Below are positions 4,038-40,280 of a stretch of 64,000 nt of DNA, piece by piece. Origin of the DNA: a virus; IMG/VR virus record IMGVR_UViG_3300025383_000015, positions 1 through 64,000 of that record; one strand, given 5' to 3'. The notes under the pieces are model-generated. The model was given only the letters and a program-made list of their open reading frames with translations. It had not been told where the DNA came from and searched no databases. Numbering within the stretch: the first letter of the stretch is position 1; each line of letters starts with the position of its first letter. A program made the position numbers and the translations under genes.

Positions 4038-4073
4038 TTAGGTCAAGTCCTTTCTATAGTTAGTTGAGGGGGA

Positions 4074-9061: not shown

Positions 9062-9063
9062 GA

Positions 9064-9538: not shown

Positions 9539-9545
9539 TGTTATC

Positions 9546-10322: not shown

Positions 10323-10326
10323 TAGA

Positions 10327-11780: not shown

Positions 11781-11782
11781 AG

Positions 11783-12157: not shown

Positions 12158-12171
12158 AAGGCTATCTTCCC

Positions 12172-12558
12172 CTAGTTTGCAGCGGGAGTCTTAGTATTTG
12201 TAATGCAATTTTCAATGGTAATTAGGCGATCGCCCATCTCTACAAACGCTTCAAGCAGTTTGTCTTGTACTTCTATTACTTTAGACTGGTTTGCGTAGAG
12301 TTTATCTACTTTGTCTTTGGTGGTGCTTCCACCATTATTGCTAAGTTCGCCATCTAGTTTGTTAAGGCGTTCCATCACTCCAGGAACTCGATCACGTCCT
12401 GGAGAGGCTTCTTCGCCTTCCCAATCGCGCATGAAGCGCTCCATCCAATGCACCCATCGACGAACGCGAACATAACCAGGCTTAATAAGAAATCCTAGAC
12501 TGACGAGACCGCCAGTGACACTGGCAAAAACTACCCAAAAAGTATTTGTCACTGGCAA
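12172..12558 (-). CDS. Membrane protein (actinophage lysis-cassette type)
   Basis: N-terminal TM helix; W.GE...PG....PGVMERL...EL..NGGS..KD. Confidence 0.7.
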   Translation of the reverse strand: MPVTNTFWVVFASVTGGLVSLGFLIKPGYVRVRRWVHWMERFMRDWEGEEASPGRDRVPGVMERLNKLDGELSNNGGSTTKDKVDKLYANQSKVIEVQDKLLEAFVEMGDRLITIENCITNTKTPAAN

Positions 12559-12571
12559 TCTCCTGAATCAG

Positions 12572-12859
12572 TTACTTGTTGTTCTGTGCAATTGTCTTTT
12601 CAGCATCTGATGTTGCTGCTGCCACACCTTCAGCGACGACAGCCTCTGGGAGACCTGTCTTCTTAGAGATAATGTTAGCAACTGATGCTGGGTTCAACTT
12701 TGCAAGTGCTGGAGCAACCAAACCTGCTGCAAGTGCCCAAATGACTGACTTGTAGTCGTGATGGCCTGGTGTCTTCAACGTGATTCCGACGATACCGATA
12801 GCAGTACCAGCGGTTGCATATACGTAGTGCTCTACGAGAGCAAGATACTTCTTGTTCAT
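12572..12859 (-). CDS. Holin-like membrane protein
   Basis: Two TM segments; A.LVAPAL..LNP motif. Confidence 0.55.
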   Translation of the reverse strand: MNKKYLALVEHYVYATAGTAIGIVGITLKTPGHHDYKSVIWALAAGLVAPALAKLNPASVANIISKKTGLPEAVVAEGVAAATSDAEKTIAQNNK

Positions 12860-24890: not shown

Positions 24891-24979
24891 AACCTGATTT
24901 TAGGGCTACTGCCTGCCTTTGTACCCCTCAACCATGTCTCTGCCCTGGGCCTCTCCCTCGTGCGATCGCGTTTAACCAT

Positions 24980-25001
24980 GGGGGGTGGCAGGGGGTGGCG
25001 G
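24980..25001. repeat. G-tract, (GGGGGTGGC)x2
   Basis: GGGGGGTGGCAGGGGGTGGCGG. Confidence 0.85.
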
Positions 25002-25059
25002 TGTTACCAATTTGTACCTCATTACAAGTCATGTACATCGGTGTTAACACACGCGTGAA

Positions 25060-25300
25060 TGCGTGCCTGCATGCCTGCTTGGTGACAATCTTGGTGACAC
25101 GATCACTCTGCAGGCTCGGCTACTGTCGCAGAATGTTGCATGCCTGCATCGGTACGACCAGACGATCAGGTGTGCCACCCCACTAATAACAGATACGTGC
25201 ATGCGTGCATCGTTGCATCGTTGTCGCGTTGCATGCATGTGCGAATACATCGGACAACTGCACATGCAATCAATCAATACAACTCTGCATGCACTGCAAC
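25060..25300. repeat. TGCA/GCATGC-rich short-repeat array
   Basis: About 14 TGCA in ~240 bp, partly in 8-bp units. Confidence 0.8.
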
Positions 25301-25315
25301 AGATCATCACGAATC

Positions 25316-25352
25316 TATCTCTCTCTTCTTATTCTTCTTCTTCTCTCTCTAT
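25316..25352. repeat. Pyrimidine-rich mirror repeat
   Basis: TATCTCTCTCTTCTTATT-C-TTCTTCTTCTCTCTCTAT; 18-nt arms with 1 mismatch. Confidence 0.85.
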
Positions 25353-25572
25353 TTGATTATCAAACTCTGGAAGAAAAAACACTTGGCGCGATTTCACGCG
25401 ATCACGTGCCTCACGATCGTTTAACTTTCAACTAACTAATTGAATCTTCAACTAATTTTATCAATCTACTTATATCGGACATTGTGGACACGATGACTGG
25501 TCAAAGTTACTTACACCCCACAAAATATGCATATAAATCGGACATATCGACCCAATAAATGCGTGCGCCTAT

Positions 25573-25601
25573 TTGACCTTGTCCTATAAATACGGAATAG
25601 T
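25573..25601 (+). promoter_or_regulatory. Housekeeping-sigma early promoter
   Basis: TTGACC-17 bp-AATAGT at the head of the plus-strand operon. Confidence 0.6.
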
Positions 25602-25608
25602 GCTCCTT

Positions 25609-25960
25609 GTACACACGCGGTAGCGATTAGATCAGGTCAGAATCCCCTAGGGGCACCGATCGAAATCAAAGCCAGAAGTGGTAAAGGGTACAGATACACA
25701 GCAGTTAGTCGGTGTAGTGGGCAACAGTCATTAAATCCCTAGGGAACTGACCCGCGTGACGAAAACCTGCGAGGGGTATCGAATTACATAGAGAACTCAG
25801 AACACAATTAGCGGGGCTGGTCATGGACTGCCACTCAGGTGCAGGCGGTAATCAATCCGACCGACAGAACAGTGACACCAGCCCCTACTAATTGCTCCCA
25901 GAACTGTCCATGACTCGATCGTGGGCGGTTCTGGTAGCAATCTGGTGCTATCTCTACATG
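25609..25960 (+). ncRNA. Large structured RNA (ncRNA or structured leader), family unknown
   Basis: Multiple nested helices with G-U pairs, a GCGA tetraloop and a probable pseudoknot (see findings). Confidence 0.65.
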
Positions 25961-25973
25961 AAGGGCAAATCCA

Positions 25974-26102
25974 ATGACAAAGAAAAATAAATCATGCAGT
26001 CAACATGCAATCTGCGTTTCCTCCGATAGCAACTTGCCAGAGTGCAAGTGCTGGTGTGCAGAGTGCCGTCAATACTTCCGCAATCTTCGGAAGGGTGCGT
26101 AA
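25974..26102 (+). CDS. Small Cys-rich early protein
   Basis: Not in the ORF track; GAAGGG RBS; MTKKNKSCSQHAIC...CKCWCAEC. Confidence 0.5.
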   Translation: MTKKNKSCSQHAICVSSDSNLPECKCWCAECRQYFRNLRKGA

Positions 26103-26104
26103 TC

Positions 26105-26356
26105 ATGACACCACGCAAACTCACATACGATAAGGCGCGAATCGCTCGCGAATTCGCTTGGCAACGCAATTCCTGCACAACACAAGTTGAAACCGATCTT
26201 CTTGACGTGATGATCGAACGCCTTGCATTCACAATCTTCGGCAGTCGATCACGTTTTCAACGCAACGAATTCCTACGAATCGCAAACTATAAGCGCGACT
26301 TCGACGGCAAATCTTTACTTGAGCAGTACGCATCATTAGTGCAAGGAGGCAACTAA
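26105..26356 (+). CDS. Early hypothetical protein
   Basis: Start MTPRKL after GAAGGG. Confidence 0.6.
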   Translation: MTPRKLTYDKARIAREFAWQRNSCTTQVETDLLDVMIERLAFTIFGSRSRFQRNEFLRIANYKRDFDGKSLLEQYASLVQGGN

Positions 26357-26992
26357 ATGGGACTCAAGGTTCAGGGCAAGATCAGGCGCGAGTGGTCAGC
26401 CGATCACGAGATCGTGGACTACTCATACATCATCGACACAATTGACGATCTTGAGGACTTTATTGCATACAACAGGGCATACCTCGTGTCCATGGAATTT
26501 ATTGGGCAATTGAATCGAGAGAGCGAATGAGCAAAGACATATTCGGCTTCGAGTCAGCCATTCAGATCGATCACTTAACAGAAGATCAACTTCAGCAAGT
26601 CGCAGAGATATTGAAAGGATTGAAGTAAGTGGAACTTAACAACATCGACAACGATCTTGAAGTGCTACGTCATTCTGTAGCCCCTTCTCTCTATGCATTC
26701 CTTATCAGTCAACTAACGCCAGAGGTGGTAAACGCATGAACAAAGTAATCATCACAGTTTCAGGCGGTGTTGCAGAAGTAACCCAGTGTCCTGCTGGTAT
26801 TGAGGTTGAGATCATCGACTATGACAATCTGGAGATCAACTCATGAAAACACTTGCAGTAATAATTCTTGCATTAATCATCGGTGTCTGGGGAGTCGCAT
26901 TCCGACTCACTCACCACCCTGTCTACAGAGGGTGTTCATGGCAGGCAGAGGGCTATGTCTGCAAACTCGTAAAGTGGGAGGGCAATAAGTGA
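26357..26992 (+). other. Chain of five coupled micro-ORFs (26357-26530, 26527-26628, 26629-26739, 26736-26846, 26843-26992)
   Basis: Abutting or ATGA-overlapping stop/start junctions, several with RBSs; none in the ORF track. Confidence 0.6.
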
Positions 26993-27303
26993 GCACGCTA
27001 TACAAAGAGGTTCAGGGCAAGCGCACCAGCAATTCAGGTGCACTCGAATACATCGCCAATCGCCAACCATTCAAAGCCAATTCCATGGCTGGTATCTATC
27101 CGAATTCCGATTACATCGGATATGGCAGGTTGCAGAGTGATCTCGTAGCACTTCTCAATAGCCAGCAACCCCACTACATCGTCTACTCCTATGGCACGCC
27201 TATCGCGTGGCATCACTCTGGTGGCTGGGAGATACCAGCCGTCAGGTACTCAGTCACTACTAGCAAGCACCAATCACTCGTCAGAAGGGCAGTCTGGTCA
27301 TGA
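26989..27303 (+). CDS. Phage early hypothetical protein
   Basis: YIVYSYGTPIAW...YSVTTSKHQ motif. Confidence 0.7.
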   Translation: MSTLYKEVQGKRTSNSGALEYIANRQPFKANSMAGIYPNSDYIGYGRLQSDLVALLNSQQPHYIVYSYGTPIAWHHSGGWEIPAVRYSVTTSKHQSLVRRAVWS

Positions 27304-27417
27304 TCGCGTTCTTATTTATAACCTGTATAGCAGTCACACTCTTCGCGGTGTGGCTTGATCACTTACTTACTCCCGACTCAGAACTACTCCGTCAAACTCT
27401 AGAAGAGGAAGAATCCA

Positions 27418-27693
27418 ATGGGCTCTAATTTCGCGCAAGACCTCGCCTCTGGCGAATTCGTACAATCGATTGATCAACAAATCTCAATTCACTTCGCTGG
27501 TAACTGCTATCCACCAGTACCGCAATTCATGGTCGAGCCAGCAGTTAAGGCGATCAATCAGATCAACGAGGGTGACACCACTACCGAGATCGAACTACCT
27601 GCTGGTGTCGAATTCAGGAACTCATCAACCTGTACACCATGGGAGATAGTCAATGCTCTACGACTCAATGCGTGGATTAACGAGGAGGACTAA
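27418..27693 (+). CDS. Early hypothetical protein
   Basis: RBS; HFAGNCYPPVP. Confidence 0.65.
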   Translation: MGSNFAQDLASGEFVQSIDQQISIHFAGNCYPPVPQFMVEPAVKAINQINEGDTTTEIELPAGVEFRNSSTCTPWEIVNALRLNAWINEED

Positions 27694-27954
27694 GTGTACG
27701 AATTCGAATTAGATGAACTAGGCATCATGGGTGCCATGCTTGATAAGTCGCTGGAATTCGCCAACGAAACTGGTGCACCCATAGTCATAACTGCAACTCT
27801 TGAATCTGCACTCACTAAACTCAAAGCAATCATCGAGCATAGGTTAGAAGAGCACAACACATTCGTAGATATCGCTAACTCGTTAGATGATCTCTTCGAT
27901 ACATCGCAAGCAATCATCAAAGACCCAGAAGTATCTACACCCGACTACAACTAG
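27694..27954 (+). CDS. Acidic hypothetical protein
   Basis: GGAGG RBS, GTG start. Confidence 0.6.
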   Translation: MYEFELDELGIMGAMLDKSLEFANETGAPIVITATLESALTKLKAIIEHRLEEHNTFVDIANSLDDLFDTSQAIIKDPEVSTPDYN

Positions 27955-27963
27955 GAGAACAAC

Positions 27964-28836
27964 ATGCACTCACTCAATCAATTAATTCCTTCAATAGCAT
28001 CACAAGATCACTACGTAGATCGATCATTCTGTGGAGTCACAGGTGTTCAGATCGCAGACTTCGCACTAAAGAATAAGATCAACATTCTCAATGCTGGTCA
28101 CGCTGGTACAGGTAAGACATCGTTCGCGCAGTACTACGCAAGCCAGAGAGGACTTCCCTATGTATCACTTCCGTCAAACTCAGCACTTAGTGCTAACGAA
28201 TTACAAGGCAACTGGGTCACACAGGACGGCAAACTCGAATGGGTCGACTCAATCTATGTCAAAGTATGGCGTGAAGGTGGAGTGCTCAATCTCGGTGAGG
28301 TTGATCAACTCGCAAAGAATGCTCAGTACTTTTTCCATGAAGGTACAGATCACCGCCGTACACTCACACTCACAGCACACGATTACGAAGTCGTACATGC
28401 TCACCCAGACCTGCTTATCATCGGTGACTGGAACCCAATGTACCGAGGTCGACAACCTCTCTCAGAGTCGTGGGCTGATCGCTTCCAATTAAAACTTCGT
28501 TACGAATACGATCGTGACATCGAAAGCAAGTTTATTCGATCAGGCTCTCTGCTTGATCTTGCATTCGGTATGCGATCACAATCTCGTGGCGTTGATCTAG
28601 GACAAGCAAGCAAGTCCACAGTATTCGAGACACCGATCACTCCACGCATTCTCAAAACGTTCGAATTAGTAGCACGTGAATTGAACTTCGATCTTGCGTG
28701 TGAAGTGTTCGCTAACAACTTCAATGATGAAGAACGACCAGCAGTAAAGATGCTCCTAGAGGGCGCATCATTCAATATCAAGGACGATCTAGGCATCGAT
28801 CAAGAGCAAGTAACACCAGAGTACGAGACAGTCTAA
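27964..28836 (+). CDS. MoxR/CbbQ/CobS-like AAA+ ATPase
   Basis: GHAGTGKT; Walker B variant LNLGEVD; WNPMYRG..PLSESWADRF. Confidence 0.85.
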   Translation: MHSLNQLIPSIASQDHYVDRSFCGVTGVQIADFALKNKINILNAGHAGTGKTSFAQYYASQRGLPYVSLPSNSALSANELQGNWVTQDGKLEWVDSIYVKVWREGGVLNLGEVDQLAKNAQYFFHEGTDHRRTLTLTAHDYEVVHAHPDLLIIGDWNPMYRGRQPLSESWADRFQLKLRYEYDRDIESKFIRSGSLLDLAFGMRSQSRGVDLGQASKSTVFETPITPRILKTFELVARELNFDLACEVFANNFNDEERPAVKMLLEGASFNIKDDLGIDQEQVTPEYETV

Positions 28837-28846
28837 GGAGCACGTC

Positions 28847-30796
28847 ATGAGCGAGATCAACATCACCGATCTAGGTAAGATCTTCGAAGAACTACAAGAG
28901 ATAAGTGAAGAGCAGAAAGAACTAGAGGCTAAACGCCAGCGTATCGAACGATTTACTGGATTCTTCTCTCGAGTTAACTCTGCCTTCTCATTTCGACCTG
29001 TAACAGTTAAGGTCGAGACTTCACCAGTCAAAGCACCAGCGTGGTCTGGGGCTAGTGAAGTGTTCTTCAATTCCAATGAGATCGGTGATCTTGATACGCC
29101 AGAGTCAATCGCTAGCATCAAGGGACTTGATCTTCATGAAGTAAGCCATATCCTTTACACCAGCCGTCAAGGTAGCGATCTCGTTGAGCGAGTGATCGAT
29201 AAGAGCATGTGGACTGCATTCAATGCGTTAGAAGATCAACGTATCGAGTCATTCTTCACTGCTAAGTATCCTTCAACTATCCCATGGTTCGTGTCTATGA
29301 TCTTGATTCACTTCAAGAACAACCCAGAAGTATTCGAGAACTCATACCCACTTCTCTGTGGTCGCAGATACTTGCCAGTCGAGATTCGTAAAGAGTCTCG
29401 TGCGCTATATCCGCATCAAGATAAGATCGATCAATTCAAAGCGATCATCAATGAATACCGCACCCTTGTATTCCCTACAGATACAGATCGTGGAGTCGAA
29501 TTAATCGAGCAGTACTACAACCTGCTACCAAAGAGCGAAGGTGGTAATGGTGAAGAGACTGGTAAGCCAAAGTACAAGGCAGTCAAAGATGACGGCACAG
29601 GTACAGGTACACCAATCAAAGTAATCGACCCATGTGGTCATGGTGCTCGACCAACAGAAGGTATCGAGTCATCAGTCAACTCTCGCCCAGTCCCACCACG
29701 TCAGCAGGAGAAGGAGCGCGATCGTCTTAATAGCCAATCAAAAGATATCGATGATGATCTACCAGAGATTAATGCAGAAGATATTGATTGGTCGGAATTC
29801 AATGGTCAAGATCAAGAGCCTAGTGATCAAAAGTCTGATGATGAGATCACCGACTCTGAAAGTGGAGATGCTCAAGAGCCAAGCGATAACGTGAACTCTG
29901 GAGAAGGTGCTGGCAATACTGCTGGTGAATTAATCGAGACAATCCTCGGTGAGATTCTTAGCCAGTCTGGTATTGCTCAAGAGATCAACGACATGCTACG
30001 AGTGATCAATGGCAAGCCACTTCTGGATTCGAATAACGAAAGCGAACCAATACGTGCTAACTGGAAGGAGTTAGTCCCAGACAACGTGACAGTAGAAGCC
30101 TCTCGATCATTCGGTCGTGAACTTGAACGCTTGCGTGCATCATTCGAACCTGCTTGGGATACCTACGAGAACTCAGGTCGACTCAGTATCGGTCGTTACG
30201 TTAGGGGCGATGACTTCGACACTATCTTCGATCAATGGAACGAAGGTCGTGAAGATGCTACAGATATCGAGTGCGTAATTGTGCTTGATAACTCTGGCTC
30301 AATGAGTGGACAGAAGATCGCAAACGCCAATCGTGCGATGTATGCGATCAAGCGTGCACTCGATCGTATCGATGCAAGCACAACAGTAGTCACGTTCTCT
30401 GACGAAGCACGCCTTCTCTACCATGCAACTGAGAAGTCGAATTCATTCATCAGAGATGCGTTCAGCAACGGCGGTACAGAACCAGATCAAGCGATCAGGT
30501 ATGCAACCAAGGTTCTTGCTGAAAGTAATCGCAAGATCAAGATCTTCTTCGCGATCACTGACGGAGTGTGGTACGGCGATCAAGACACTAACAATGAAGC
30601 GATCGAACGTATGGCTCGCTCTGGTGTGCTGACTGCCTTTGCCTACATTCCAGAGGGCAACGAAGAGATAGAACTGACTGCAAATAAAGCACACAAGTGT
30701 GAGATCGGTGCAGTAGTACGTAATCCATTCGACCTAATTACCATGGCACGAGCGATCGTTAAGTACGCGATCTCTCGCAGACTAACTAACGCATAA
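28847..30796 (+). CDS. VWA-domain protein with N-terminal HExxH motif (CobT-like partner)
   Basis: LHEVSH, FNALEDQRIE, MIDAS DNSGSM...GGT...ITDG. Confidence 0.85.
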   Translation: MSEINITDLGKIFEELQEISEEQKELEAKRQRIERFTGFFSRVNSAFSFRPVTVKVETSPVKAPAWSGASEVFFNSNEIGDLDTPESIASIKGLDLHEVSHILYTSRQGSDLVERVIDKSMWTAFNALEDQRIESFFTAKYPSTIPWFVSMILIHFKNNPEVFENSYPLLCGRRYLPVEIRKESRALYPHQDKIDQFKAIINEYRTLVFPTDTDRGVELIEQYYNLLPKSEGGNGEETGKPKYKAVKDDGTGTGTPIKVIDPCGHGARPTEGIESSVNSRPVPPRQQEKERDRLNSQSKDIDDDLPEINAEDIDWSEFNGQDQEPSDQKSDDEITDSESGDAQEPSDNVNSGEGAGNTAGELIETILGEILSQSGIAQEINDMLRVINGKPLLDSNNESEPIRANWKELVPDNVTVEASRSFGRELERLRASFEPAWDTYENSGRLSIGRYVRGDDFDTIFDQWNEGREDATDIECVIVLDNSGSMSGQKIANANRAMYAIKRALDRIDASTTVVTFSDEARLLYHATEKSNSFIRDAFSNGGTEPDQAIRYATKVLAESNRKIKIFFAITDGVWYGDQDTNNEAIERMARSGVLTAFAYIPEGNEEIELTANKAHKCEIGAVVRNPFDLITMARAIVKYAISRRLTNA

Positions 30797-30806
30797 GGAG
30801 GACAAC

Positions 30807-31415
30807 ATGAAGCAAGCAGATCTTAAAGTAGGTATTAAATACGGAGTCATTCCTTCTTGGGAGTACTCATCAGCAAATAAGAAGAACCCAGAGTCAGTAG
30901 AGCGTAGAGATCTTGCTAAAGCAGAACTCGTAAGCCTCGATAAGTATGAGTACGTTGTCTACAAGTCAGACACTCCAGACAACCCTACCTTCAAACGAGC
31001 ACCACAGGGCTCGCGCTCTGTGGGATACCTCGTCAAGTCATACTCCTATGGTGTAGAGCCTATTTACTGGGTGTCACGTGCACAGGACATCGTCTCTGAT
31101 TATGAGTCACTAGAGACTCGGTGGAATATCGCTGAGGAGATTGCATTCAAGCGTGCTGAAGAAGCACGTCTTGCACTTGAAGAACGTCAGCGCAAAGAGC
31201 GTGAGCAACAGGAGCGTGCAGATCGATTGGCTAAGGCAGTCAAAGATTCACTTCGTACGATCATTGGTGATCGCGTTGAGTCAATCTCTATGTCCTCTCG
31301 TAGCAAGCGCAACTCATTAGGTGAGTACACACCTACTTACTTATTCGAGATTGATACATCAGTCATGCAGGTAATAGTAGAGAAGGTTCTAGAAGCAAGG
31401 GACATGGTGAAATGA
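30807..31415 (+). CDS. Hypothetical protein
   Basis: AGGAGG RBS. Confidence 0.7.
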   Translation: MKQADLKVGIKYGVIPSWEYSSANKKNPESVERRDLAKAELVSLDKYEYVVYKSDTPDNPTFKRAPQGSRSVGYLVKSYSYGVEPIYWVSRAQDIVSDYESLETRWNIAEEIAFKRAEEARLALEERQRKEREQQERADRLAKAVKDSLRTIIGDRVESISMSSRSKRNSLGEYTPTYLFEIDTSVMQVIVEKVLEARDMVK

Positions 31416-32158
31416 CAGACTCATTCTACTTAACGCGGTTAAAGCACTACTACGAGAACAACCAGTACTCAACCAAACAAGGTGACGTCACTTACTCTAC
31501 TTATATCAATCGTAAACACTTAGGTAACACTGCAGAGATCAAATACTCCGAGATCTCCTACAGCGAAGAGACATACAAGGGTCATCAATTGATCATTCGT
31601 AAGGTCACTACCAACTGGGCATTCGTTCTTGAGAATGGTCACTGCGGTAGGTTCAGTGAAGATCAAGCAAAGGCTTTACCAGATCGTGGAGAGTGGCAGA
31701 CAGAGACAAGTTATTCAGCCTATGCATGGCGCATTCGAGATCGTGACGTTGAACCAGAGATACTAGATCATCTTTGGGGAAATGACCGATTCATCGTGGA
31801 TAACTACACAACTAACTCGCAGAAGCAGACAACGAGCAAAGCAAAGAAGCGCATCGATATTGAGGCGGTTCTTCTTGATCACAAGTCAGTGCTTAACGAG
31901 TTAGCAGGAAATCTAGTGTGGGGTAAACCAACTACTCAGCCTTACAACCTCAAGGTGCATGACTGGGTATGGATTCAAGCGCATGGCAGATTACGCAACG
32001 GCGTAGTTGTAGGCACTCAGGGTCGCAGGTTCATCGTAGGCTACACGACTCCCAGCAACCCTCACACCATGAAGTACAAGACACTCAACCTCTCTGACAT
32101 ATATGTTGTAGAGGGAGATCTCATCGAAACACAGGCACACAACTTCGTAAGAATATAA
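31412..32158 (+). CDS. Hypothetical protein
   Basis: ATGA overlap; possible C-terminal SH3/KOW-like region. Confidence 0.65.
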   Translation: MTDSFYLTRLKHYYENNQYSTKQGDVTYSTYINRKHLGNTAEIKYSEISYSEETYKGHQLIIRKVTTNWAFVLENGHCGRFSEDQAKALPDRGEWQTETSYSAYAWRIRDRDVEPEILDHLWGNDRFIVDNYTTNSQKQTTSKAKKRIDIEAVLLDHKSVLNELAGNLVWGKPTTQPYNLKVHDWVWIQAHGRLRNGVVVGTQGRRFIVGYTTPSNPHTMKYKTLNLSDIYVVEGDLIETQAHNFVRI

Positions 32159-32173
32159 GAATAGGAGCATGAC

Positions 32174-32428
32174 ATGAAAGTCAAAGAATTAATTGCGCAG
32201 TTAAATCGCGACCTCAAACCAGATGAAGAGATCATCGTGGCGTACTGGGACAAAGCAACAGTCGAGAGTTATGCAGAAGTAACTCTTACCGATAACCAAT
32301 GGACTGACATCGTTGCTGAGCAAGACAGATACGAGTCAATCGAACTTGATCGATTCGGTGAGCAACTTCAAGAGACCGCTACGGAAGTCGGTAAGTCAAT
32401 CTATGAAGAGGAGGAAAGTAATGCCTGA
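32174..32428 (+). CDS. Hypothetical protein
   Basis: MKVKELIAQL start; RBS. Confidence 0.65.
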   Translation: MKVKELIAQLNRDLKPDEEIIVAYWDKATVESYAEVTLTDNQWTDIVAEQDRYESIELDRFGEQLQETATEVGKSIYEEEESNA

Positions 32429-32584
32429 CAGCATTCATGCAGGGATAGTGCACGACTTAGAGGCAGAGGAGTATCACTACACATGCTCTACCTGTAGCAC
32501 ACAACTCTATGCACCCACTAAGGTTGAGATTCAAGATGCAATACCCAGACATACTAAAAGCAAGGACTGCTTAGGAGGCTATTA

Positions 32585-32839
32585 ATGAACCCCCCATACA
32601 ACGGCACGCAACTCTGTGCTCAAGTAGACCCAGAGGTGTTCTTCCCAATCAATAATTTTGAAAGGGCAGACAACATCGCTACGGCAATAAGTATCTGTAT
32701 TCAATGCCCACTTCTAAAAGAGTGTAGAGAGTATGCAGATTCACTGCCAGAGGTCTTTGGTGTATGGGGTGGCAAGATGTACGAAGTAAACATGTGGAAG
32801 AAAGAGATCACAAGGAAACCAATAGGGAGGGCTTCATAG
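32585..32839 (+). CDS. whiB: WhiB-family transcription factor (early copy)
   Basis: CAQVDPEVFFP...CIQCPLLKEC...GVWGG. Confidence 0.9.
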   Translation: MNPPYNGTQLCAQVDPEVFFPINNFERADNIATAISICIQCPLLKECREYADSLPEVFGVWGGKMYEVNMWKKEITRKPIGRAS

Positions 32840-33005
32840 TGGGCTATGCAGAAGTAATACGAGTAACACCAGAGCAATTAGATCTCTGCGACTCATGCAG
32901 TAACCAAGGCATGATCGACTCAGGTCACACTATCTATAGCAACTCAGGTGAGAGGTTGATCTTTATCTGCTTCAATTGCAAAGAAAAGATTCAGCGAGGA
33001 GAAGT

Positions 33006-33326
33006 ATGAGCCAAGAGGCAACCGAGTTAAAAAAAGCACTGATCATTGCCAGTGAGTTTATTAAGATCGCTCGTGGATTCAAGGTTGAGTCAGAGCGTGC
33101 TAATGGCTTACCGCCAGAGATCACAGAGCATTTAGCAAACGATCATCTTGATCGCGTTCTATCAGAGAACAACATAGAGCCAGAGATGATCATCTGGGGG
33201 CTGATGAAGATTATTGAGATTCTTCTTGCCTACACAGACCAATCAGTAGAAGAACTAACTGAGACTATCGATAAATTTGTCGAATACCTAAAGTCACAGG
33301 AGACAACCAATGAAGATCAATCTTAG
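33006..33326 (+). CDS. Hypothetical protein
   Basis: Start MSQEATEL after GAGGAG. Confidence 0.6.
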   Translation: MSQEATELKKALIIASEFIKIARGFKVESERANGLPPEITEHLANDHLDRVLSENNIEPEMIIWGLMKIIEILLAYTDQSVEELTETIDKFVEYLKSQETTNEDQS

Positions 33327-33340
33327 GAGAGTAATCAAGC

Positions 33341-33523
33341 ATGAGCGAATGGCTTACATATACAGACATCGCAAAATTAACGGGTCTAAAGTACGACACG
33401 ATCTACAGACATCGAAAGCGAAACACCCTTCCAGAGCCAGATCTACAGATCGGCAACAAACCACTCTGGAGCAAGTCAACGATTGATACATGGATAACCA
33501 AACGAGAGAGCAAAGGTAACTAA
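33341..33523 (+). CDS. AlpA/excisionase-like wHTH protein
   Basis: WLTYTDIAKLTGL...TIY..RKR..LPEPD...PLWSKSTIDTW. Confidence 0.75.
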   Translation: MSEWLTYTDIAKLTGLKYDTIYRHRKRNTLPEPDLQIGNKPLWSKSTIDTWITKRESKGN

Positions 33524-33524
33524 C

Positions 33525-33689
33525 ATGGCAACCCGATACGAGATTGACGTTGATGTCATGGTTGATCGCATTCGAGTCAACCTGTTCGATAAGAAGAGCA
33601 AAGCGGTAGCAGTAGGTAGTGGCACCACGATCGTAGAAGCATTCACTGATGCCTACGATCTCATCACCACTCAAGTACTGGAGGTATAA
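33525..33689 (+). CDS. Small hypothetical protein
   Basis: 54-aa ORF MATRYEIDV; not in the ORF track. Confidence 0.5.
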   Translation: MATRYEIDVDVMVDRIRVNLFDKKSKAVAVGSGTTIVEAFTDAYDLITTQVLEV

Positions 33690-33728
33690 CTAACTTCTGG
33701 GTTCTCTATGTATCTCGATACCCAGACT

Positions 33729-33768
33729 TTGACTATCGATCTACTGGTGGGTAATGTACTGACCAGTA
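33729..33768 (+). promoter_or_regulatory. Integrase promoter with palindromic operator-like site
   Basis: TTGACT-17 bp-TAATGT; TACTG-AC-CAGTA palindrome over the predicted start site. Confidence 0.65.
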
Positions 33769-33783
33769 ACAGGCTACGAGGAG

Positions 33784-35067
33784 GTGGCTATGGCTTATGT
33801 AGTGCAACGCGGTAAGCGATTTACCGCCTATTATCGTCTCAACGGCAAACGCCTCTCGGCTGGCACATGGGATTCCTATGCCAAGGCTGAGGCTTCGGCT
33901 ATGAAGGCTGAGGTTCTGGGCTTCTCAGAGCCTTCTGGGGCTGATTCCAGCCTTGCCACATACTTCACCAAGTGGCTCAAGACGGCTGATCTTATGCCGA
34001 TCACCAAGAAGCACTATGAATTAACTTTTCGAACATACGTTCTAAATCGCCTAGGCTCTCATGAAGTAACTTCCATTTCGGCCAAACAGATTCGAAAGTT
34101 ACTTAGTGATCTTAGACTCGAGGGCGTTAAGCCTGCCACGCTGGGACAGATCAAAGCATGCCTAGGGTCAGCCTTCGCCTCTCTCGTGGAGAATGAGGAG
34201 ATAGCGGTCAATCCCACCCATGGCATCAAGGTCAAGGTCAACCAGCCAGACCTGCACAATGTCCTAGAGCCTGCCGAATTCAAGAAGATACTAAGTAACT
34301 TACCTGGCGGAACCGGTTCCGGTGCAAAGTTACTTGCCAAGATGCTCGTTCTTTCTGGTGCTCGCTTTGGTGAGGCTACAGAACTCAGGGTAAAAGACTT
34401 CAATTTTAACTCTGGCGAGGTATTTATCCAGAGACGCGTGAGTGAATTGGGCGCAACCTACAACTCTGGCGAGAGATTCAAGGTTATAGATGCCACCAAG
34501 TCGGGCAGAAAACGCTCAATAACACTCTCAAAAGCCCTATTACATGAGATTAAAGCGTATGTCCTAGCAAAAGACCTACAAAAAGATGACCTACTCTTCC
34601 CAAGGAGCATCGTGTTAACGGCAGGTAAACTAGAACCTTCACGCGAGATCGATACTTCGCAGCCATACGCTGCGGGGGGAAAACGCTTCAAGCATGGAAC
34701 GCTATACTCCTACACCCATGGTGGCTGTAGATGCCAAGCCTGCAGGGAGGCAGTGCGAAAGCACCGCCAAGCCAAGGCAAGGTCAAAGGTAAAGCAGACC
34801 ATGACCAACGATAAGAGCCACTTACCGCGTGGAGTCTGGAGAACTACATGGAACCAAGCAATAGCCAAGTCAGGAATTGGCTGGACTCCTAGAACCCATG
34901 ACCTCCGTCATGCCAACGCCACCCTGTTGTTAAAGAACGGGGTAGACGTACATGAGGTCAAGGAACGTCTAGGTCACCAGTCAATTAAAACAACGGAGAG
35001 GTATTTACACCGCCTCCGTCACCAGCAGTCAACGGCAGGAGAACTCGCCAATGACTTTATGGAGTGA
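33784..35067 (+). CDS. int: Tyrosine recombinase/integrase with inserted Cys/His module
   Basis: GARFGE, HDLRH, LGH, TERY catalytic residues. Confidence 0.92.
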   Translation: MAMAYVVQRGKRFTAYYRLNGKRLSAGTWDSYAKAEASAMKAEVLGFSEPSGADSSLATYFTKWLKTADLMPITKKHYELTFRTYVLNRLGSHEVTSISAKQIRKLLSDLRLEGVKPATLGQIKACLGSAFASLVENEEIAVNPTHGIKVKVNQPDLHNVLEPAEFKKILSNLPGGTGSGAKLLAKMLVLSGARFGEATELRVKDFNFNSGEVFIQRRVSELGATYNSGERFKVIDATKSGRKRSITLSKALLHEIKAYVLAKDLQKDDLLFPRSIVLTAGKLEPSREIDTSQPYAAGGKRFKHGTLYSYTHGGCRCQACREAVRKHRQAKARSKVKQTMTNDKSHLPRGVWRTTWNQAIAKSGIGWTPRTHDLRHANATLLLKNGVDVHEVKERLGHQSIKTTERYLHRLRHQQSTAGELANDFME

Positions 35068-35074
35068 TGAAACT

Positions 35075-35695
35075 ATGAAAGCAATATCAAAAGCAAGAGT
35101 CATGCTGGGAACTATCTCAGCATCGGCAGTAGCACTATCGGTTATGATCGGGTTTTCAGCCCCAGCCATAGCCCCAAGCAACGCACAAGCACTAGAGGCA
35201 AAGATGCTCGTCCTCAAGCAGTACGAGAACGTGGCAGTCTTTCAACCTACTCAACTAGTCAGCCTCTTGAAAGCCACAGGTTTTCAAGGACAAGCACTAG
35301 AAGATGCTTGGGCGATCGCTATGAAAGAATCACATGGAAATGCGCTTGATTACAATGGCAACATTCATACTGGAGATAACTCGTATGGACTGTTCCAAAT
35401 CAACATGCTTGGCTCTATGGGCGCAGATAGAAGAGCCTATTATGGTTTAGCGTATAACGCTCAACTGCTAAATCCTGTGAGTAATGCCAAGGTTGCTTAT
35501 CTTATGAGCAATGGTGGCAAAGATTGGAGTGCATGGAAAGGTCTGCATACTCAAGCCGTAAAGACTTGGTTAGCGCAGTACCCATACAAAGCGACACCTC
35601 AGGTACACAAAGCAGTAGCAAAGGCAAAAGTAAAGATCAAGACTGTAGGTCATCAGATCAAAGCAAGTCGCAAGACAAAGCCTAAGAAGAAGTAG
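35075..35695 (+). CDS. Secreted lysozyme-like/SLT transglycosylase
   Basis: Signal peptide; AMKESHGN...DNSYGLFQIN...NP..NA...GGKDWSAW. Confidence 0.85.
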   Translation: MKAISKARVMLGTISASAVALSVMIGFSAPAIAPSNAQALEAKMLVLKQYENVAVFQPTQLVSLLKATGFQGQALEDAWAIAMKESHGNALDYNGNIHTGDNSYGLFQINMLGSMGADRRAYYGLAYNAQLLNPVSNAKVAYLMSNGGKDWSAWKGLHTQAVKTWLAQYPYKATPQVHKAVAKAKVKIKTVGHQIKASRKTKPKKK

Positions 35696-35705
35696 GAGCA
35701 CGAGA

Positions 35706-35723
35706 GCCCCTCGCAAGAGGGGC
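35706..35723 (+). other. GNRA-capped hairpin
   Basis: GCCCCTC-GCAA-GAGGGGC. Confidence 0.6.
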
Positions 35724-35746
35724 ATCTCATCACATCGGAGCACACT

Positions 35747-36157
35747 ATGAGTACTAATTGGAATTACCAATACCACGAGTGGAAGAAAAAGCGCCAAGAT
35801 ACAGAGCGCAGAGTTAAGAGTCAGTGGGTGCAACCTGAGTTGCCATACAACACTGTAAGTCCCCACCAGCAATCTGCTCAAGAACAATTTTTTAGTCACG
35901 TATCTAAATCCAACAGAATAAGCGATAGAGACTTTCATGATTTATTCTGGAATCATCTTGTGCACGTAGGTTGGCGAATAGATACAGACAGTTGCATAGT
36001 ACTTACCTGTCTAAAATGTGATCAGTCTCTATTTTCAGTAGACATCAACACAATTGACAAAATGGAACAAACAAAGACTTCTTATTTAAGAAACCCAAAA
36101 GAGCACATTAGTCGGCATACATGCAAAGAGGAGGGCAATGATGCAGTGCGGGAATAA
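35747..36157 (+). CDS. Hypothetical Zn-binding protein
   Basis: CLKC...HTC; GGAG RBS. Confidence 0.55.
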   Translation: MSTNWNYQYHEWKKKRQDTERRVKSQWVQPELPYNTVSPHQQSAQEQFFSHVSKSNRISDRDFHDLFWNHLVHVGWRIDTDSCIVLTCLKCDQSLFSVDINTIDKMEQTKTSYLRNPKEHISRHTCKEEGNDAVRE

Positions 36158-36347
36158 AAAAGCCTATCCAACCAAGTACAAGGCAGATAGAGCCTTAGGT
36201 ATCATTTGGAAGGTAAGCATCAGTACACAATCAACACGAACACGACCTTGTAGGTCATACCAGTGCAGTGAGTGTCATAAGTGGCACTTAACTAGCAGGT
36301 ACGATGTTGATCTCAAGGTAACGCAAGAAAGCCCTACCAAAAGGTAG
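36138..36347 (+). CDS. Small Zn-finger protein
   Basis: CGNKKAY...RSYQCSECHKWHLTS. Confidence 0.7.
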   Translation: MMQCGNKKAYPTKYKADRALGIIWKVSISTQSTRTRPCRSYQCSECHKWHLTSRYDVDLKVTQESPTKR

Positions 36348-36356
36348 GGCTTCTTG
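36324..36356. terminator. Bidirectional terminator at the convergence point
   Basis: CAAGAAAGCCCTACC-AAAA-GGTAGGGCTTCTTG. Confidence 0.7.
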
Positions 36357-36578
36357 TTATTTAATTAACTCGTTAAGTTTATCTAGCCTAAAGCCTGACC
36401 ACGAGTCGGTCTCAGTGACCACTACAGGTGCAGACCTGTAGCCTTTCTCTTCAATCAACGGCATGATTTCAGGAGAGTCTGCAATCATCTTTGCCTCAAA
36501 CTCTATGCTCTTCATAGTAAGAAAGCGCTTAGTACTTTCACACTGAGAGCAATTTGGATTACTGTAAACAGTGATCAT
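36357..36578 (-). CDS. nrdH: Glutaredoxin-like NrdH-redoxin
   Basis: ITVYSNPNCSQC...APVV...WSGFR. Confidence 0.9.
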   Translation of the reverse strand: MITVYSNPNCSQCESTKRFLTMKSIEFEAKMIADSPEIMPLIEEKGYRSAPVVVTETDSWSGFRLDKLNELIK

Positions 36579-38590
36579 TGATTATCCTTCACAAGTTTAA
36601 TCTCACATGCATCAGTAGTGCAGTAAGCCTCACCAATAGCATCAATAGCCATACCAGCATAGACACCAGCGAAGTCGATTGGGAAGAGAGCCTTACAAGC
36701 CTCCTCGTACTCTTCCTCTGTGATCTGTGTGTACGGCATTTGTGGGTAGACATCATTCATCATAGGCAAGAATGAGACAGTCTTTAGTTGTCCGTCATAC
36801 ATGTGCAAAGCCGTACCAATAGCAGATGCCTCTGTCTCTGGGTCAAAAGATACAGTGACAGATACAGAGTTATCTGACCAGTATCGTTGAGCCGTAGCAG
36901 CAAGAGCCATCTTCTCGTAAATAGATACGTCCTTCTCAGAACGCTTGGCTTCGCTCTTGATTGGGAAGAACACAACAGAAGTTCCCTTTGGATCTTCATT
37001 GGCTGGCTCAATACGATAGTTAGCCATAGTAAAGAGAGCAAGCATTGGGTCGTTATTACGGAAGCGGATTGCACGATTGAAGTACTGACCGCCAACAGTC
37101 CAGTGAACTCCTGGAGATTCACCTGCGAGGATAGAGACTGTGCCTGATGGCTTTACAGTTGTAGTCTTAATTGACTCACGAATACCAAGCCATTCAGAGT
37201 AAGACTTGTCATAGCCCTGAATAACTTTGTAGCCCTCGTCCATCCATGAACGAAGAACTGGCAAGCCCTTGTTATCTGCAAAGTTAGCAACGCCAGAGAT
37301 CGATGTACCGATACGGCGATTGCGTTGCATGATTGCGTTGGTCTCTTCCCAGTGGGTAGGGAGAAGAGTGACAGTCTTTGCATAGAGGTAAGCAAACTTA
37401 AGAGTGCGCTTGAAGTCCTCAAGATCGGTATGACGATTGAGGTATGTCTCAACCAAAGTACAGCACTCATAAGACTCAAGAGATTGTTCGGCGCATGGGT
37501 TATAGCCTGAGATGCGCCAGTCTTTGTTGTTCTCTGGATCTGCAAGTCGTCCATACTTACGAGAGACATCCATCCAGATAACTCCAGGCTCTCCGTTACG
37601 GGAAATTCCCTCGATGATAGGGGAAAGATCCTGACCTACTGATACTTCTACAGAGTTGTTGGACATCCAGCCATAGGCAGCACGCTCTGGATACATCTCA
37701 TAGTTCTTAAGGTTCAAGAACTTCTCATCATCAATACGACCCATAAGAAGTTCTGCAGAACGGCGAACGTTTCCAGAGACTACGCATACACCGATGCGGT
37801 TACCGATATCTGCAATATCCGTGCGAGTAAGTAACTCACCAGCACGGCCCGCAAACATAGAAGTTACTTCTTTGTGGAACTCGATGAGGGAGTCGGGGCC
37901 AGCCGCAGTTCCGCCAAATGTCTTGATCGGCTCTCCTGCTGGTCGGATTTGGCTGTAGTCAAAGACAGGCCTCTTCTGATCTGGCTTAAGGAAGGAATTG
38001 ATGAGGGCGGCTGATGACTCGACCCAGCCCTCGCGTGTGTCGGGAATGATGTAGTCGTATTCGCCTTGTGGCTCATAGATTGTGAACTCCTTATCTGCGC
38101 CCTTATCATCGAAGCCAACGCCCACACCGAGCATTGAGGCTTCCATAAGAAAGGCAAATGGTTTTGCTGGATCTGTCTTTGTCATCGAACCTGTCGAGAC
38201 AAAGGCGCAGTTCTGCAACGCTGCAGAGTTACGTTGTTCGTTAACAATAGGTGTACCCATAACCCAGAGACCACGTCCTGGAGGTGTCCACTTCAATTCA
38301 AATAGGCGATCGAACGCTTCCTTAGCCGAGGCTGCAGCCTTGGCATCAGACCATGGCAGGCGGTTTAACTTGGCGTGATCTTTTTGAAGGGAGTACATGC
38401 CATTGATGACTCGCTCGCATACATCTACCCATGTCTCCTTCGTACCATCTGCCTTGAGGCGTGAATAGGTGCGGAGATAGGTGATCTCACCGACTGAATT
38501 TCCTGCAGCATCTTGGTAGCCAAATGGCGCCTTCTTCGTCCTGTACGGAGCGATGAAGTCGTCAGCCAACTTGAATGAAAATAACGACAT
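36575..38590 (-). CDS. nrdJ: Class II (B12-dependent) ribonucleotide reductase
   Basis: PPGRGLW, NCAF, GNVRRSA, NPCAEQ, TVKPSGTVS, C-terminal CTTDAC. Confidence 0.93.
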   Translation of the reverse strand: MSLFSFKLADDFIAPYRTKKAPFGYQDAAGNSVGEITYLRTYSRLKADGTKETWVDVCERVINGMYSLQKDHAKLNRLPWSDAKAAASAKEAFDRLFELKWTPPGRGLWVMGTPIVNEQRNSAALQNCAFVSTGSMTKTDPAKPFAFLMEASMLGVGVGFDDKGADKEFTIYEPQGEYDYIIPDTREGWVESSAALINSFLKPDQKRPVFDYSQIRPAGEPIKTFGGTAAGPDSLIEFHKEVTSMFAGRAGELLTRTDIADIGNRIGVCVVSGNVRRSAELLMGRIDDEKFLNLKNYEMYPERAAYGWMSNNSVEVSVGQDLSPIIEGISRNGEPGVIWMDVSRKYGRLADPENNKDWRISGYNPCAEQSLESYECCTLVETYLNRHTDLEDFKRTLKFAYLYAKTVTLLPTHWEETNAIMQRNRRIGTSISGVANFADNKGLPVLRSWMDEGYKVIQGYDKSYSEWLGIRESIKTTTVKPSGTVSILAGESPGVHWTVGGQYFNRAIRFRNNDPMLALFTMANYRIEPANEDPKGTSVVFFPIKSEAKRSEKDVSIYEKMALAATAQRYWSDNSVSVTVSFDPETEASAIGTALHMYDGQLKTVSFLPMMNDVYPQMPYTQITEEEYEEACKALFPIDFAGVYAGMAIDAIGEAYCTTDACEIKLVKDNQ

Positions 38591-38762: not shown

Positions 38763-40280
38763 CTAATCTTCGATAGATGACTGAATAATCTTCGTGACTG
38801 ACTCTTCCTTGAGAGTTTCAGGTAGTTCACGAAGTGCTTGAGCCCTATCTCCGAAGATTGCGGACAGCACTCCACCAGAAGATTGACGGCTTGCAGTGAT
38901 CTGAATGAACTCTTTATTCTGATCCATCTCGTTGACATTGCCAACCAACTTGAGTAGTCGATCGATCTCTTGCGAGAGATTTGGATCTGCGTATCCACCA
39001 TTCATTTCTTCAGCAAAACGCATAAAAGCCACTCTTTGCCCCTGCATTTCGATAATTGCAGTGAGTAACGCCTTGAGTTGATCTTTTGTTTTTACCTCAA
39101 CTGGCAGGTTGAAGGCGCACTGATTCTGGGGCTTAAAGGCTGGACAATTGCTTGCAACGAAGCAGGTGTCACACTGACGAAGGCTTGCCTGTTGGGTATG
39201 AACGACGGGGACATCTCGCAGAACATCCTTGCCGTCATCTCCTGTCTCTACGATTGTTTTGGTCTTGAAGCCAAACACTGGAAGATTTTGCATCTCTTCT
39301 GGGGCGCGTTCTACCACTTCGGAGCGTTCTTGTTTCCGCACTTCGGGAGCACTAATGTCAGATGGTGTACCCCCCATTTCCATCATTAGCCCCGTATACA
39401 GATCATCACTGTTATCAGATACTATGTCCTTTTTTCCCCCATCAATGACGTGGAAGGTAGGCGGTTTCTTCTCCATAGCGGACTCCATCTGTAGGTATGA
39501 CCAGACTGCAACTCTAGTCGATTCGAGGGTACTATCTTTAACAAACTCAGAATAGTCTAGCCCAGCACGCTCTACGACAGTCTTGTAACGGATGCGGGCT
39601 TGGTCTTTCATGCGCTTGGGATAGCGCTTGATCTGCTTGCCGTCCCAGACGATCGTCTCGCCTCTACGCATAGGTGAGAGCCACGACAATGTGCTGGCAG
39701 AGCCAAATGGTATCTGTCGAAGGTTGTCTGGCTTGGCACAGCCAAGGGCGTGGAAAGTGGTTCCTGTCTGCCGTGCAAGACCGCGTGTGACACCTGACAG
39801 GTTAGTTACCGACTCAATCTCAGAGTTAGGAATAAGTATGTTGGGATAACGGCCCGCAAGTTCTCGCAAGTTACTTATCCCGTAGGATTCATGCCAGACT
39901 ACCCATAACTTTGGATCGTTCTCAAAGAAAGGACGCTGGGCTTCAATCCACTCTCTACCTAATACCTGTGAGTCAAACTCGTGGAAGGCTAGGGCGCGAT
40001 CTGCGTTGTTGACAAGAAACTCTTGGTATTCAGAGGCTAGGGCGAGTAGTTCCTGCCTTGATAGCCCAGCCTTATCCGCTTGAGCAGCACCTGACTCAAT
40101 GATGACTTGAGTCTCAGGAGTGAAATGTTCGCTAATCAGCCAGATCTTAGTCTTAGGCAACCCACGCTTACGAAGACCCCAGAAGTTGAGTCCCATCGCC
40201 TCAACTTTCATACCTTCTAAGAGCGTGCGGTTAGAGCCTACTTCGGCTCCTGAGAATACGATCTTAGTCAGAGTACTCAC
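38763..40280 (-). CDS. TGT/DpdA-like TIM-barrel protein (divergent) fused to a Cys4 Zn module and helical tail
   Basis: IIESGA, FHALG, SASTLSW..RRG resemble TGT-like DSGA/HxLG/SxDSxSW; CDTC..C...C. Confidence 0.45.
   Translation of the reverse strand: MSTLTKIVFSGAEVGSNRTLLEGMKVEAMGLNFWGLRKRGLPKTKIWLISEHFTPETQVIIESGAAQADKAGLSRQELLALASEYQEFLVNNADRALAFHEFDSQVLGREWIEAQRPFFENDPKLWVVWHESYGISNLRELAGRYPNILIPNSEIESVTNLSGVTRGLARQTGTTFHALGCAKPDNLRQIPFGSASTLSWLSPMRRGETIVWDGKQIKRYPKRMKDQARIRYKTVVERAGLDYSEFVKDSTLESTRVAVWSYLQMESAMEKKPPTFHVIDGGKKDIVSDNSDDLYTGLMMEMGGTPSDISAPEVRKQERSEVVERAPEEMQNLPVFGFKTKTIVETGDDGKDVLRDVPVVHTQQASLRQCDTCFVASNCPAFKPQNQCAFNLPVEVKTKDQLKALLTAIIEMQGQRVAFMRFAEEMNGGYADPNLSQEIDRLLKLVGNVNEMDQNKEFIQITASRQSSGGVLSAIFGDRAQALRELPETLKEESVTKIIQSSIED

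Follow-up and report, generated by a model that had tools for sequence, protein, structure and literature searches.

An uncultured tailed phage carries, within a genome of 100 kb, a block of 9 kb from which a long list of short DNA words has been purged and in which one palindrome, GATC, is present in excess. The genome is that of IMG/VR record IMGVR_UViG_3300025383_000015; the window analyzed here is the first 64 kb (64,000 nucleotides) of this single 100,324-bp viral contig, referred to as G000 in our comparisons, and positions are those of the window. The minus strand holds almost all genes, and the block lies at the single large plus-strand module of the genome (~25.0-36.35 kb), whose edges are reversals of AT skew. 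The core purged zone, at 24949..34079, contains zero copies of at least eight word families and comprises a non-coding leader and 15 early-type open reading frames (ORFs). As the purge is kept in one block, with the same words tolerated bases away on the same molecule, exposure or protection must be unequal along the genome. We propose below that the block may be early DNA, read in the host cell before the phage is protected from restriction.

The word families absent from both strands of 24,949-34,079 are GGCC, CCWGG, GGWCC, GCWGC, GGATC/GATCC, GGATG/CATCC, GATGG/CCATC and ACCGT/ACGGT; GACGC/GCGTC is likewise missing. Genome-wide, the eight families amount to 1,272 sites, or one per ~79 bp, and the gap over the core measures 9,132 bp, as against 518 bp at most for the longest gap outside the module. 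A preliminary description of this DNA had reported no GGCC in 26000-33780 and had judged CCWGG, GGWCC and GCWGC to be scarce. The GGCC gap in fact runs from 24,949 to 34,080, and the other three words are absent from the zone altogether. These four words alone have 596 sites across the genome, and the probability that they would leave such a gap is ~7e-24. The purge extends to non-coding DNA, since the 1.1-kb leader has 0 sites for 15.7 expected and every other window of 1,093 nt outside the module has at least 5. Depletion is equal on both strands. GG and CC dinucleotides occur at normal levels in the block, which excludes a simple GG/CC dinucleotide ban as the cause and means that whole words are avoided.

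Codon usage in the block is distinctive: TTC encodes 85% of its codon family against 28% in other genes, ATC 64% against 39%, and CTC and GTC are raised as well. We therefore evaluated word counts in the 15 ORFs (6,912 nt) against three null models: a gene-by-gene permutation of synonymous codons, resampling based on the codon usage of the genome, and synonymous swaps that never create a banned word. All depletions stay significant under these nulls (for instance 0 versus 9.9 for GGCC, 0 versus 12.3 for GGATC/GATCC and 0 versus 10.1 for GATGG/CCATC), which rule out codon usage as the cause both of the depletions and of the GATC excess examined below. The shortfall relative to an expectation that preserves codons and protein, seen on either strand and extending to non-coding DNA, is the pattern by which restriction-site avoidance is recognized. 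The banned words match the classic specificities of HaeIII, EcoRII/BstNI, AvaII, TseI/BbvI, AlwI, FokI, BccI and HgaI and, for the genome-wide bans, of AluI and HpaII. The division between enriched adenine-type and depleted cytosine-type words drawn in the preliminary description is not clean: GGATC, GGATG and CCATC are banned, and GCGC, CGCG and CTAG are not.

Two further words are avoided throughout the genome. AGCT has 0 occurrences in 100,324 bp, with ~271 expected in the remaining genes, and CCGG has 2, both in the integrase gene, with 0 versus ~88 expected in the remaining genes. Avoidance hence has two tiers, AGCT and CCGG being gone genome-wide and the longer list (tier 2) only from the early block. 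The two CCGG sites, at 34313 and 34319, lie 6 nt apart, and the same pair recurs in three related contigs (L001, L006 and L008). They belong to a tyrosine integrase gene (33784..35067, plus strand), which also holds the first GGCC, CCWGG and GCWGC beyond the purged core. The CCGG pair and these first tier-2 sites suggest that this gene arrived more recently or has been ameliorated less.

The phage's family is large and uncultured: more than 600 contigs bear a related capsid gene. We used the gene for a VWA-domain protein to trace the module in relatives and found orthologs in ten contigs; the module stands between the same flanking genes wherever a contig reaches the flanks. Modules at ~77% protein identity are nearly free of the same words, contain 11-24 GATC/kb and return to normal within 1 kb of their edges, so that the purge persists despite the turnover of synonymous sites in these relatives. 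Of five complete relatives that we examined, four carry the module. The list of banned words depends on the lineage. G002 bans AGCT and CCGG genome-wide and purges a tier-2 list in its module. In G001, GGCC is banned genome-wide (a single GGCC is left) and the module purges a different list, with GTAC at 0/20, CATG at 0/14, ACGT at 1/14, CGCG at 1/18 and ATAT at 4/35, leaving a gap of 10,227 bp. G003 (98,099 bp) has 0 AGCT, CCGG, CGCG and GATC genome-wide and a near-empty module of 10.8 kb; the near-empty zones of G002 and G003 both measure ~11 kb. G005 (91,620 bp) has 0 CCGG, GATC and CTCGA/TCGAG, but 626 AGCT. These lineage-specific genome-wide bans look like fingerprints of host restriction systems.

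The zone begins abruptly and ends gradually. Counted from the upstream edge, the observed/expected ratio for each lineage's purged set is 0, 0 and ~0.1 over the first 12 kb, then 0.6-0.9, then ~1, and at the upstream edge itself it drops from ~1 to 0 at once. This abrupt-then-graded shape is found in four complete genomes (G000, G001, G002 and G003). Over the genome remainder a weak positive trend persists in G000, G001 and G002 (Spearman 0.53, 0.51 and 0.55; p 0.01-0.02), the trend in G003 (Spearman 0.33) being not significant. In G000 the downstream transition corresponds to a graded tail of the plus-strand module (34080..36896) with 4 tier-2 sites in 2.8 kb and no GATC enrichment, containing the integrase, an SLT_3 lysozyme-like protein and two small ORFs. 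The upstream edge, at 24,948/24,949, lies ~600 nt upstream of a promoter-like site and ~60 nt away from where the first minus-strand gene has its start codon. In two related contigs, L003 and L005, the homologous base likewise begins the zone.

GATC shows the opposite behavior. The maximum-likelihood GATC-rich interval (26150..34150) has 14.0 GATC/kb versus 3.8/kb elsewhere, and its end coincides with the end of the purge. The counts made by hand in the preliminary description were all reproduced: 14 GATC in 28801-29520 versus 4 in 57901-58620, and 7 GAATTC in 26150-27760. Its remark that GATC avoids GGATC and GATCC contexts extends to all 107 GATC in 26000-33700; having no G before and no C after is the sole context rule, and it follows from the GGATC ban. 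In the ORFs, GATC occurs 99 times against 63.2 +/- 4.7 under within-gene synonymous shuffling (z 7.6), 46 under genome codon usage, and 62-64 under the null barred from creating banned words. By codon phase, observed and expected counts are 50/36, 8/4 and 41/23, with an excess in nearly every gene. The G|ATC junction excess (41 versus 23) is specific, other G|ANN junctions being unenriched; NNT|C junctions in general are also somewhat favored, which accounts for part of the GAT|C excess. The sites are dispersed with Poisson-like spacing, and a search for an extended motif, clustering or periodicity found none. Among the general GA-Nn-TC palindrome series, GATC alone is strong, with GACTC/GAGTC modest (z 3.3) and GAATC/GATTC and GANNTC not significant. 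The GATC excess is real, conserved and coextensive with the purged coding region.

The other two words singled out earlier fare differently. The preliminary description had read the enrichment of GATC, GAATTC and TCGA as an accumulation of N6-adenine methylation targets serving as a protective coat or decoy, and had allowed that codon usage might explain it away. This is what happens to TCGA (67 versus 62) and GAATTC (9 versus 6), neither of which exceeds what the block's own codon usage predicts: both result from NTC codons ahead of GAN codons, and in relatives GAATTC is absent or rare (G001, L003 and L007) and TCGA is mostly at expectation. GATC alone survives the nulls. A methylatable coat is further weakened by the lack of any Dam-type, N6/N4-type or C5 methyltransferase among the matches of the phage genome, which leaves the idea without a phage enzyme.

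GATC also exceeds the codon-preserving null in G001 (113/67, z 8.4), L003 (123/88, z 6.9), G002 (66/50, z 3.2) and, at 65% identity, in IMGVR_UViG_3300021138_000190 (L007; 80/61, z 4.0); where a lineage bans GATC genome-wide, total avoidance takes the place of the enrichment. Individual sites are retained between lineages at 55-66%, versus 41-42% for the average tetranucleotide. Gains match losses (70 versus 84 in one comparison, 78 versus 78 in another), which indicates that a density is kept rather than a fixed set of sites. One tentative interpretation, which we hold to be possible but doubtful, is that GATC is a positively selected dispersed signal on first-exposed DNA, flipping to total avoidance where hosts cut GATC. 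Under that interpretation a host or phage factor, for instance a GATC methyltransferase or a GATC-binding nucleoid protein, might coat, mark or time the early DNA. We found no published explanation for a conserved gain of GATC on early DNA. One lead is a GATC-binding nucleoid-associated protein of Actinobacteria, Gbn (SCO1839), which prefers GATCWT, is reported only in mycelial Actinomycetales and represses expression mildly (PMC9239103). The block differs from what Gbn would favor, in that GATCWT (1.82x over the null) is no more enriched than GATCWA (2.01x).

A further depletion in 24949-34079 concerns A/T runs (AAAA/TTTT, AAAT/ATTT and GAAA/TTTC), which number 16 versus 41.5 expected from block codon usage and 85.6 from genome usage. 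G+C content in the block equals that found elsewhere in the genome, and the same depletion is seen in L003, L007, G003 and G005. It is symmetric between strands, which rules out selection at the RNA level. Possible causes are the evasion of AT-binding silencers such as Lsr2, which is named in the Gbn paper (PMC9239103), or additional restriction words.

A conserved non-coding boundary element (24933..25010) marks the upstream edge, with the last tier-2 sites at 24,944 and 24,948. It reads …CTGCCCTGGGCC…GCGATCGC…CCATGGGGGGTGGCAGGGGGTGGCGGTGTTACC and combines GCGATCGC with a G-rich repeat, GGGGGGTGGCAGGGGGTGGCGG; it is near-identical in G000, L003 and L005 despite coding DNA that is ~77% identical, and is absent from G001, G002, G003 and G005. 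Two contigs from different samples end in its G-rich tract (24,980-25,001) from opposite sides, L121 at 24,994 and L001 from 25,002. The element is a candidate terminus or packaging site. Direct repeats of the TGCATGC / GCATGCNTGCATCG type cluster at 25050-25300, between this element and the promoter-like site, and may be operator sites; a long CT-rich tract (25,320-25,355) follows the cluster. The promoter-like site, TTGACC-17-AATAGT (25573..25601, plus strand), stands at the head of the module; its flanking blocks are invariant in relatives, and its -35 hexamer is not conserved.

Downstream of this site, the conserved non-coding leader (25609..25960, plus strand) is more conserved than coding DNA. 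Rfam models gave no match on the leader or on the whole module, and no riboswitch was detected in the leader. The leader contains the left arm (25774..25802) of a 29-nt long-range inverted repeat whose right arm (33695..33723, plus strand) lies at the end of the purged core, in the spacer of 94 nt that precedes the integrase gene. The arms, complementary at 26/29 positions, thus bracket the core, with a chance expectation that we estimate at ~2e-5. The repeat is kept in close relatives and was not found in G002 and G003. In L003 a different inverted-repeat sequence takes the same two positions (5518-5535 and 5724-5740 pairing with 15507-15542), the right element pairing with two left segments that flank a leader domain of ~190 nt. 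The arms might form an RNA duplex over long range, serve as two recombinase sites or, like the injection-stop repeats of T5, act as a border element. An invertible segment between the arms was considered and dismissed, as about eight contigs spanning a flank showed no orientation variants. The convergent end of the plus-strand module is marked by a terminator-like hairpin with a 10-bp stem and a T-run (36329..36352, plus strand).

The gene content of the block is of an early type. Six small early-type ORFs of no known family (26042..27954, plus strand), two of them strongly acidic (isoelectric point 4.1), precede the genes for an AAA_5 (MoxR/CobS-like) ATPase of 290 aa (27964..28836, plus strand) and the VWA-domain protein (28847..30796, plus strand), which has 649 aa, a CobT-like size and a weak CobT_C match. 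Downstream come two unknown proteins and further small ORFs, including a WhiB-family regulator (32585..32839, plus strand; Pfam E value 9.5e-14), whose presence in an early block suggests an early reprogramming of host transcription. Searches of the module ORFs against Pfam and PHROGs returned only AAA_5, VWA, WhiB, integrase, SLT_3 and one PHROG of unknown function, and protein-atlas look-ups for the unknowns of 202 aa and 248 aa were uninformative. Several small, strongly acidic proteins, among them those encoded at 27,418-27,954 and 32,174-32,428, are no more than candidates for an anti-restriction function. The CobS/CobT-sized pair (27964-30796) lies near a gene for a B12-dependent class II ribonucleotide reductase (36575-38590), and a link of the pair to cobalamin supply is conceivable. 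Adjoining the module, at 38763-40280, is a divergent DpdA/TGT-like protein that matches phrog_887 (queuine tRNA-ribosyltransferase; E value 1.7e-53) and has no match to Pfam TGT or to any solved Protein Data Bank (PDB) structure. Neither the canonical TGT, QueC and GTP cyclohydrolase I models (PF01702, PF06508 and PF01227; QueD and QueE were not searched for) nor the DNA methyltransferase models (PF02086, PF01555 and PF00145, for which controls matched) found a match in the complete genome.

The contig, rated 100% complete by CheckV, has no end repeats and encodes a terminase, portal, major head protein, family A DNA polymerase, helicases and a UvsX-like recombinase along with the reductase and the TGT/DpdA-like protein. 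Its large terminase subunit (TerL) is 53-54% identical to those of Streptomyces phages, and related head genes are found within chromosomes of Terracoccus, Streptomyces, Nonomuraea and Herbidospora. Together with the WhiB gene, these relationships indicate that the host is probably a member of the Actinomycetota. Megablast of the early block against cultured phages gave no match. LuckySocke, one of these Streptomyces phages with a related terminase, has exact terminal repeats of 344 bp and therefore fixed ends. In the present contig the right end (genome positions 100265-100324, past the window) lies inside a coding sequence of collagen-like Gly-X-Y repeats, so that the contig ends are probably assembly breaks rather than physical termini.

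We propose that the block at 24.9-34.1 kb would be early DNA, which the host machinery has to read at a time when the phage is not yet protected against restriction. Its early exposure would most likely arise through first entry of a fixed-end genome, either staged as in T5 or transcription-coupled as in T7. Any cut in the block would then be fatal, and selection would have stripped it of the words cut by the restriction systems of the actinobacterial host population. The remaining genome would arrive later or be shielded by an early function; it could thus retain tier-2 words and would avoid only those that the protection fails to cover, AGCT and CCGG in this lineage. GATC, ~1.6-fold over the codon-preserving expectation, would be held there by selection on the dispersed word rather than on a longer motif; it might be read by a methyltransferase of the host, by a nucleoid protein that binds GATC or by another factor. 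That the early block enters the cell first and encodes a protective function is, on balance, our preferred reading, and we rate it as somewhat probable. We infer three elements in it: restriction as the selective agent, first entry of the block, and protection of the remainder by an early product.

This reading is favored by the conjunction of early-type gene content, an abrupt start at a conserved element, a graded end, a terminase related to those of fixed-end phages, and precedents in other phages. We also count in its favor that no methyltransferase or 7-deazaguanine pathway gene, among those searched for, was found that would protect the bulk DNA. Among the precedents, Type I and Type II systems restrict T5-like phages only where sites lie in the first-step-transfer DNA, which makes up 7.9% of the genome, and pre-early functions shield the remaining DNA by a mechanism described as unknown (PMC10644984; bioRxiv 10.1101/866236). 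In the T7-like Murciavirus, restriction sensitivity is set only by motifs in the leading region (PMC12455610). The idea of leading DNA under selection, already advanced in the preliminary description, gains circumstantial support from the early-type block, the strong word avoidance, its maintenance in relatives and the shape of the edges; the long terminal repeat suggested along with it is unsupported, as the block is single-copy and internal in every contig.

Several observations weigh against a first-entering block. The block is internal in the contig, and related complete contigs circularize through assembly overlaps of 123-127 nt. Contig-end pile-up proved unusable as a proxy for a terminus: the ends of more distant lineages are scattered with no pile-up at one position, and just two coincide, in close relatives and at a G-rich tract that may simply be hard to sequence. 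The purge is also uneven among relatives. L007 keeps the module with a partial purge only (tier-2 set at 50 versus 94 expected over ~2800-12600, with weaker GATC enrichment) and provides a natural contrast case for what relaxes the selection, and the only module-specific depletion found de novo in G005 is weak. The module ORFs include no homolog of T5 A1, A2 or Dmp, of Ocr or ArdA, or of other known anti-restriction proteins. Neither T5 first-step-transfer DNA nor the LuckySocke ends show a comparable purge, so that the analogy with T5 would be one of logic, with no sequence signature in common. The missing signature and the missing A1/A2/Dmp homologs are two cautions against placing the block in the T5 class.

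Differential modification is the main alternative, and an unlikely one in our assessment. Bulk virion DNA would carry a mark blocking the enzymes that cut tier-2 words, though not AGCT or CCGG cutters, and the early block would be left unmodified, possibly because the mark would hinder host RNA polymerase; staged entry would not be needed. The divergent DpdA/TGT-like gene next to the module and the fit of two-tier avoidance with an incomplete chemical shield speak for such a scheme, but the searches for QueC, GTP cyclohydrolase I, a canonical TGT domain and DNA methyltransferases were all negative, and the DpdA-like protein itself matches neither Pfam TGT nor a solved structure. Nor is any cis feature known by which 9 kb could escape a post-replicative mark, and the graded downstream edge and the genome-wide polarity trend are unpredicted. 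The polarity trend, which reaches downstream beyond the operon, is also awkward for a kinetic race, in which the whole genome enters together and only cuts in the early operon are lethal, by stopping an inhibitor or repair function, those elsewhere being prevented in time or mended by recombination. The same two-tier logic applies to such a race, the phage does encode a UvsX-like recombinase, and the purged zone coincides with one transcription unit from the leader to the integrase spacer. Yet Type II enzymes would be hard to outrun, with ~1,270 sites exposed and cleavage at any of them taking seconds to minutes, and the abrupt edge falls at a conserved element in non-transcribed DNA, ~600 nt upstream of the promoter-like site. 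We find a race improbable as well.

Explanations that dispense with current selection on the block fare worse. The module might have come from another phage lineage, its word usage being an inherited relic. It does look mosaic, as related capsid and terminase genes occur in prophages of Terracoccus, Streptomyces, Nonomuraea and Herbidospora where no VWA homolog was found, which also left these prophages unusable as a test bed with a known host, and its codon usage differs from that of the other genes, most visibly for TTC. However, the same flanking genes surround the module in all relatives whose contigs reach them, zero counts persist at ~77% protein identity with ~40% of individual GATC sites turned over, different lineages purge different words in the same block, and a relic would decay in a molecule under equal exposure; a mosaic origin is thus very unlikely to account for the pattern. 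That composition or codon usage produced the pattern, without any selection on DNA words, merits next to no credence. Such an artefact fully explains the TCGA and GAATTC enrichment through NTC-rich codon usage, and the general NNT|C junction preference contributes to the GAT|C excess. For the depletions and for GATC it is refuted: both survive the three null models, the purge spans 1.1 kb of non-coding DNA and both strands symmetrically, and the G|ATC excess is not shared by other G|ANN junctions.

Compared with T5, BF23 and other Tequintavirus, whose first-step-transfer segment is ~8-9% of a genome of ~100-120 kb and carries small takeover-type genes, the block is similar in proportion (9.1%) and content. 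Restriction through that segment only was established in T5 by experiment; the counterpart here would be a sequence proxy, 0 sites in 9,132 bp against one per 79 bp. Both have a long, non-coding, repeat-rich border. The injection-stop region of T5 includes conserved long-range inverted repeats, associated with the segment end, and DnaA boxes; a possible counterpart here is the 29-nt repeat that brackets the core, replaced by another sequence in L003 and lacking in two of the complete relatives. There are differences too. In the T5 segment 4-5-mers are not purged and GATC is not in excess, whereas at least 10 words are zeroed here; that segment is part of a terminal repeat of ~10 kb at the leading end, whereas the present block is internal and single-copy in the contig; and phage family and host phylum differ, with no homologs of the pre-early genes A1, A2 and Dmp found here. 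T5-like virion DNA is not Dam-methylated at GATC. The block is moreover followed by an integrase gene, which points to a temperate lifestyle.

The Murciavirus leading region resembles the block in being host-transcribed unidirectionally away from the end, with variable gene content and a terminator at its end. There, a single Type I motif was shown by experiment to matter, in contrast to a sequence signature involving many Type II/IIS-like words here, and no Ocr homolog or phage RNA polymerase was identified in our genome, which is 100 kb long with most genes on the opposite strand. The loss of AGCT and CCGG, and of GATC, CGCG or GGCC in relatives, is akin to the palindrome avoidance observed genome-wide in phages, with the difference that a second, regional tier is confined to one block where one palindrome is enriched. 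Self-methylation of the T4/P1 Dam type differs in that no phage-encoded DNA adenine methyltransferase was found here, and 7-deazaguanine (DpdA) modification in that only a PHROG-level TGT-like protein is present, with no QueC or GTP cyclohydrolase I match.

If the proposed reading is correct, the entry order of an uncultured phage genome and the part of it that is unprotected would be readable from sequence alone, through a block that begins abruptly, fades out gradually and bans a list of words particular to its lineage. This list would be a fossil record of the restriction systems of hosts that have never been cultured, and the division between genome-wide and block-only bans would separate the systems that early functions can neutralize from those that they cannot. 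It would also point to a broad anti-restriction function among the uncharacterized genes of the block, as in T5, whose protective function is, to our knowledge, still unknown after decades. The gain of GATC, if its reader is identified, would be a new kind of signal between phage and host.

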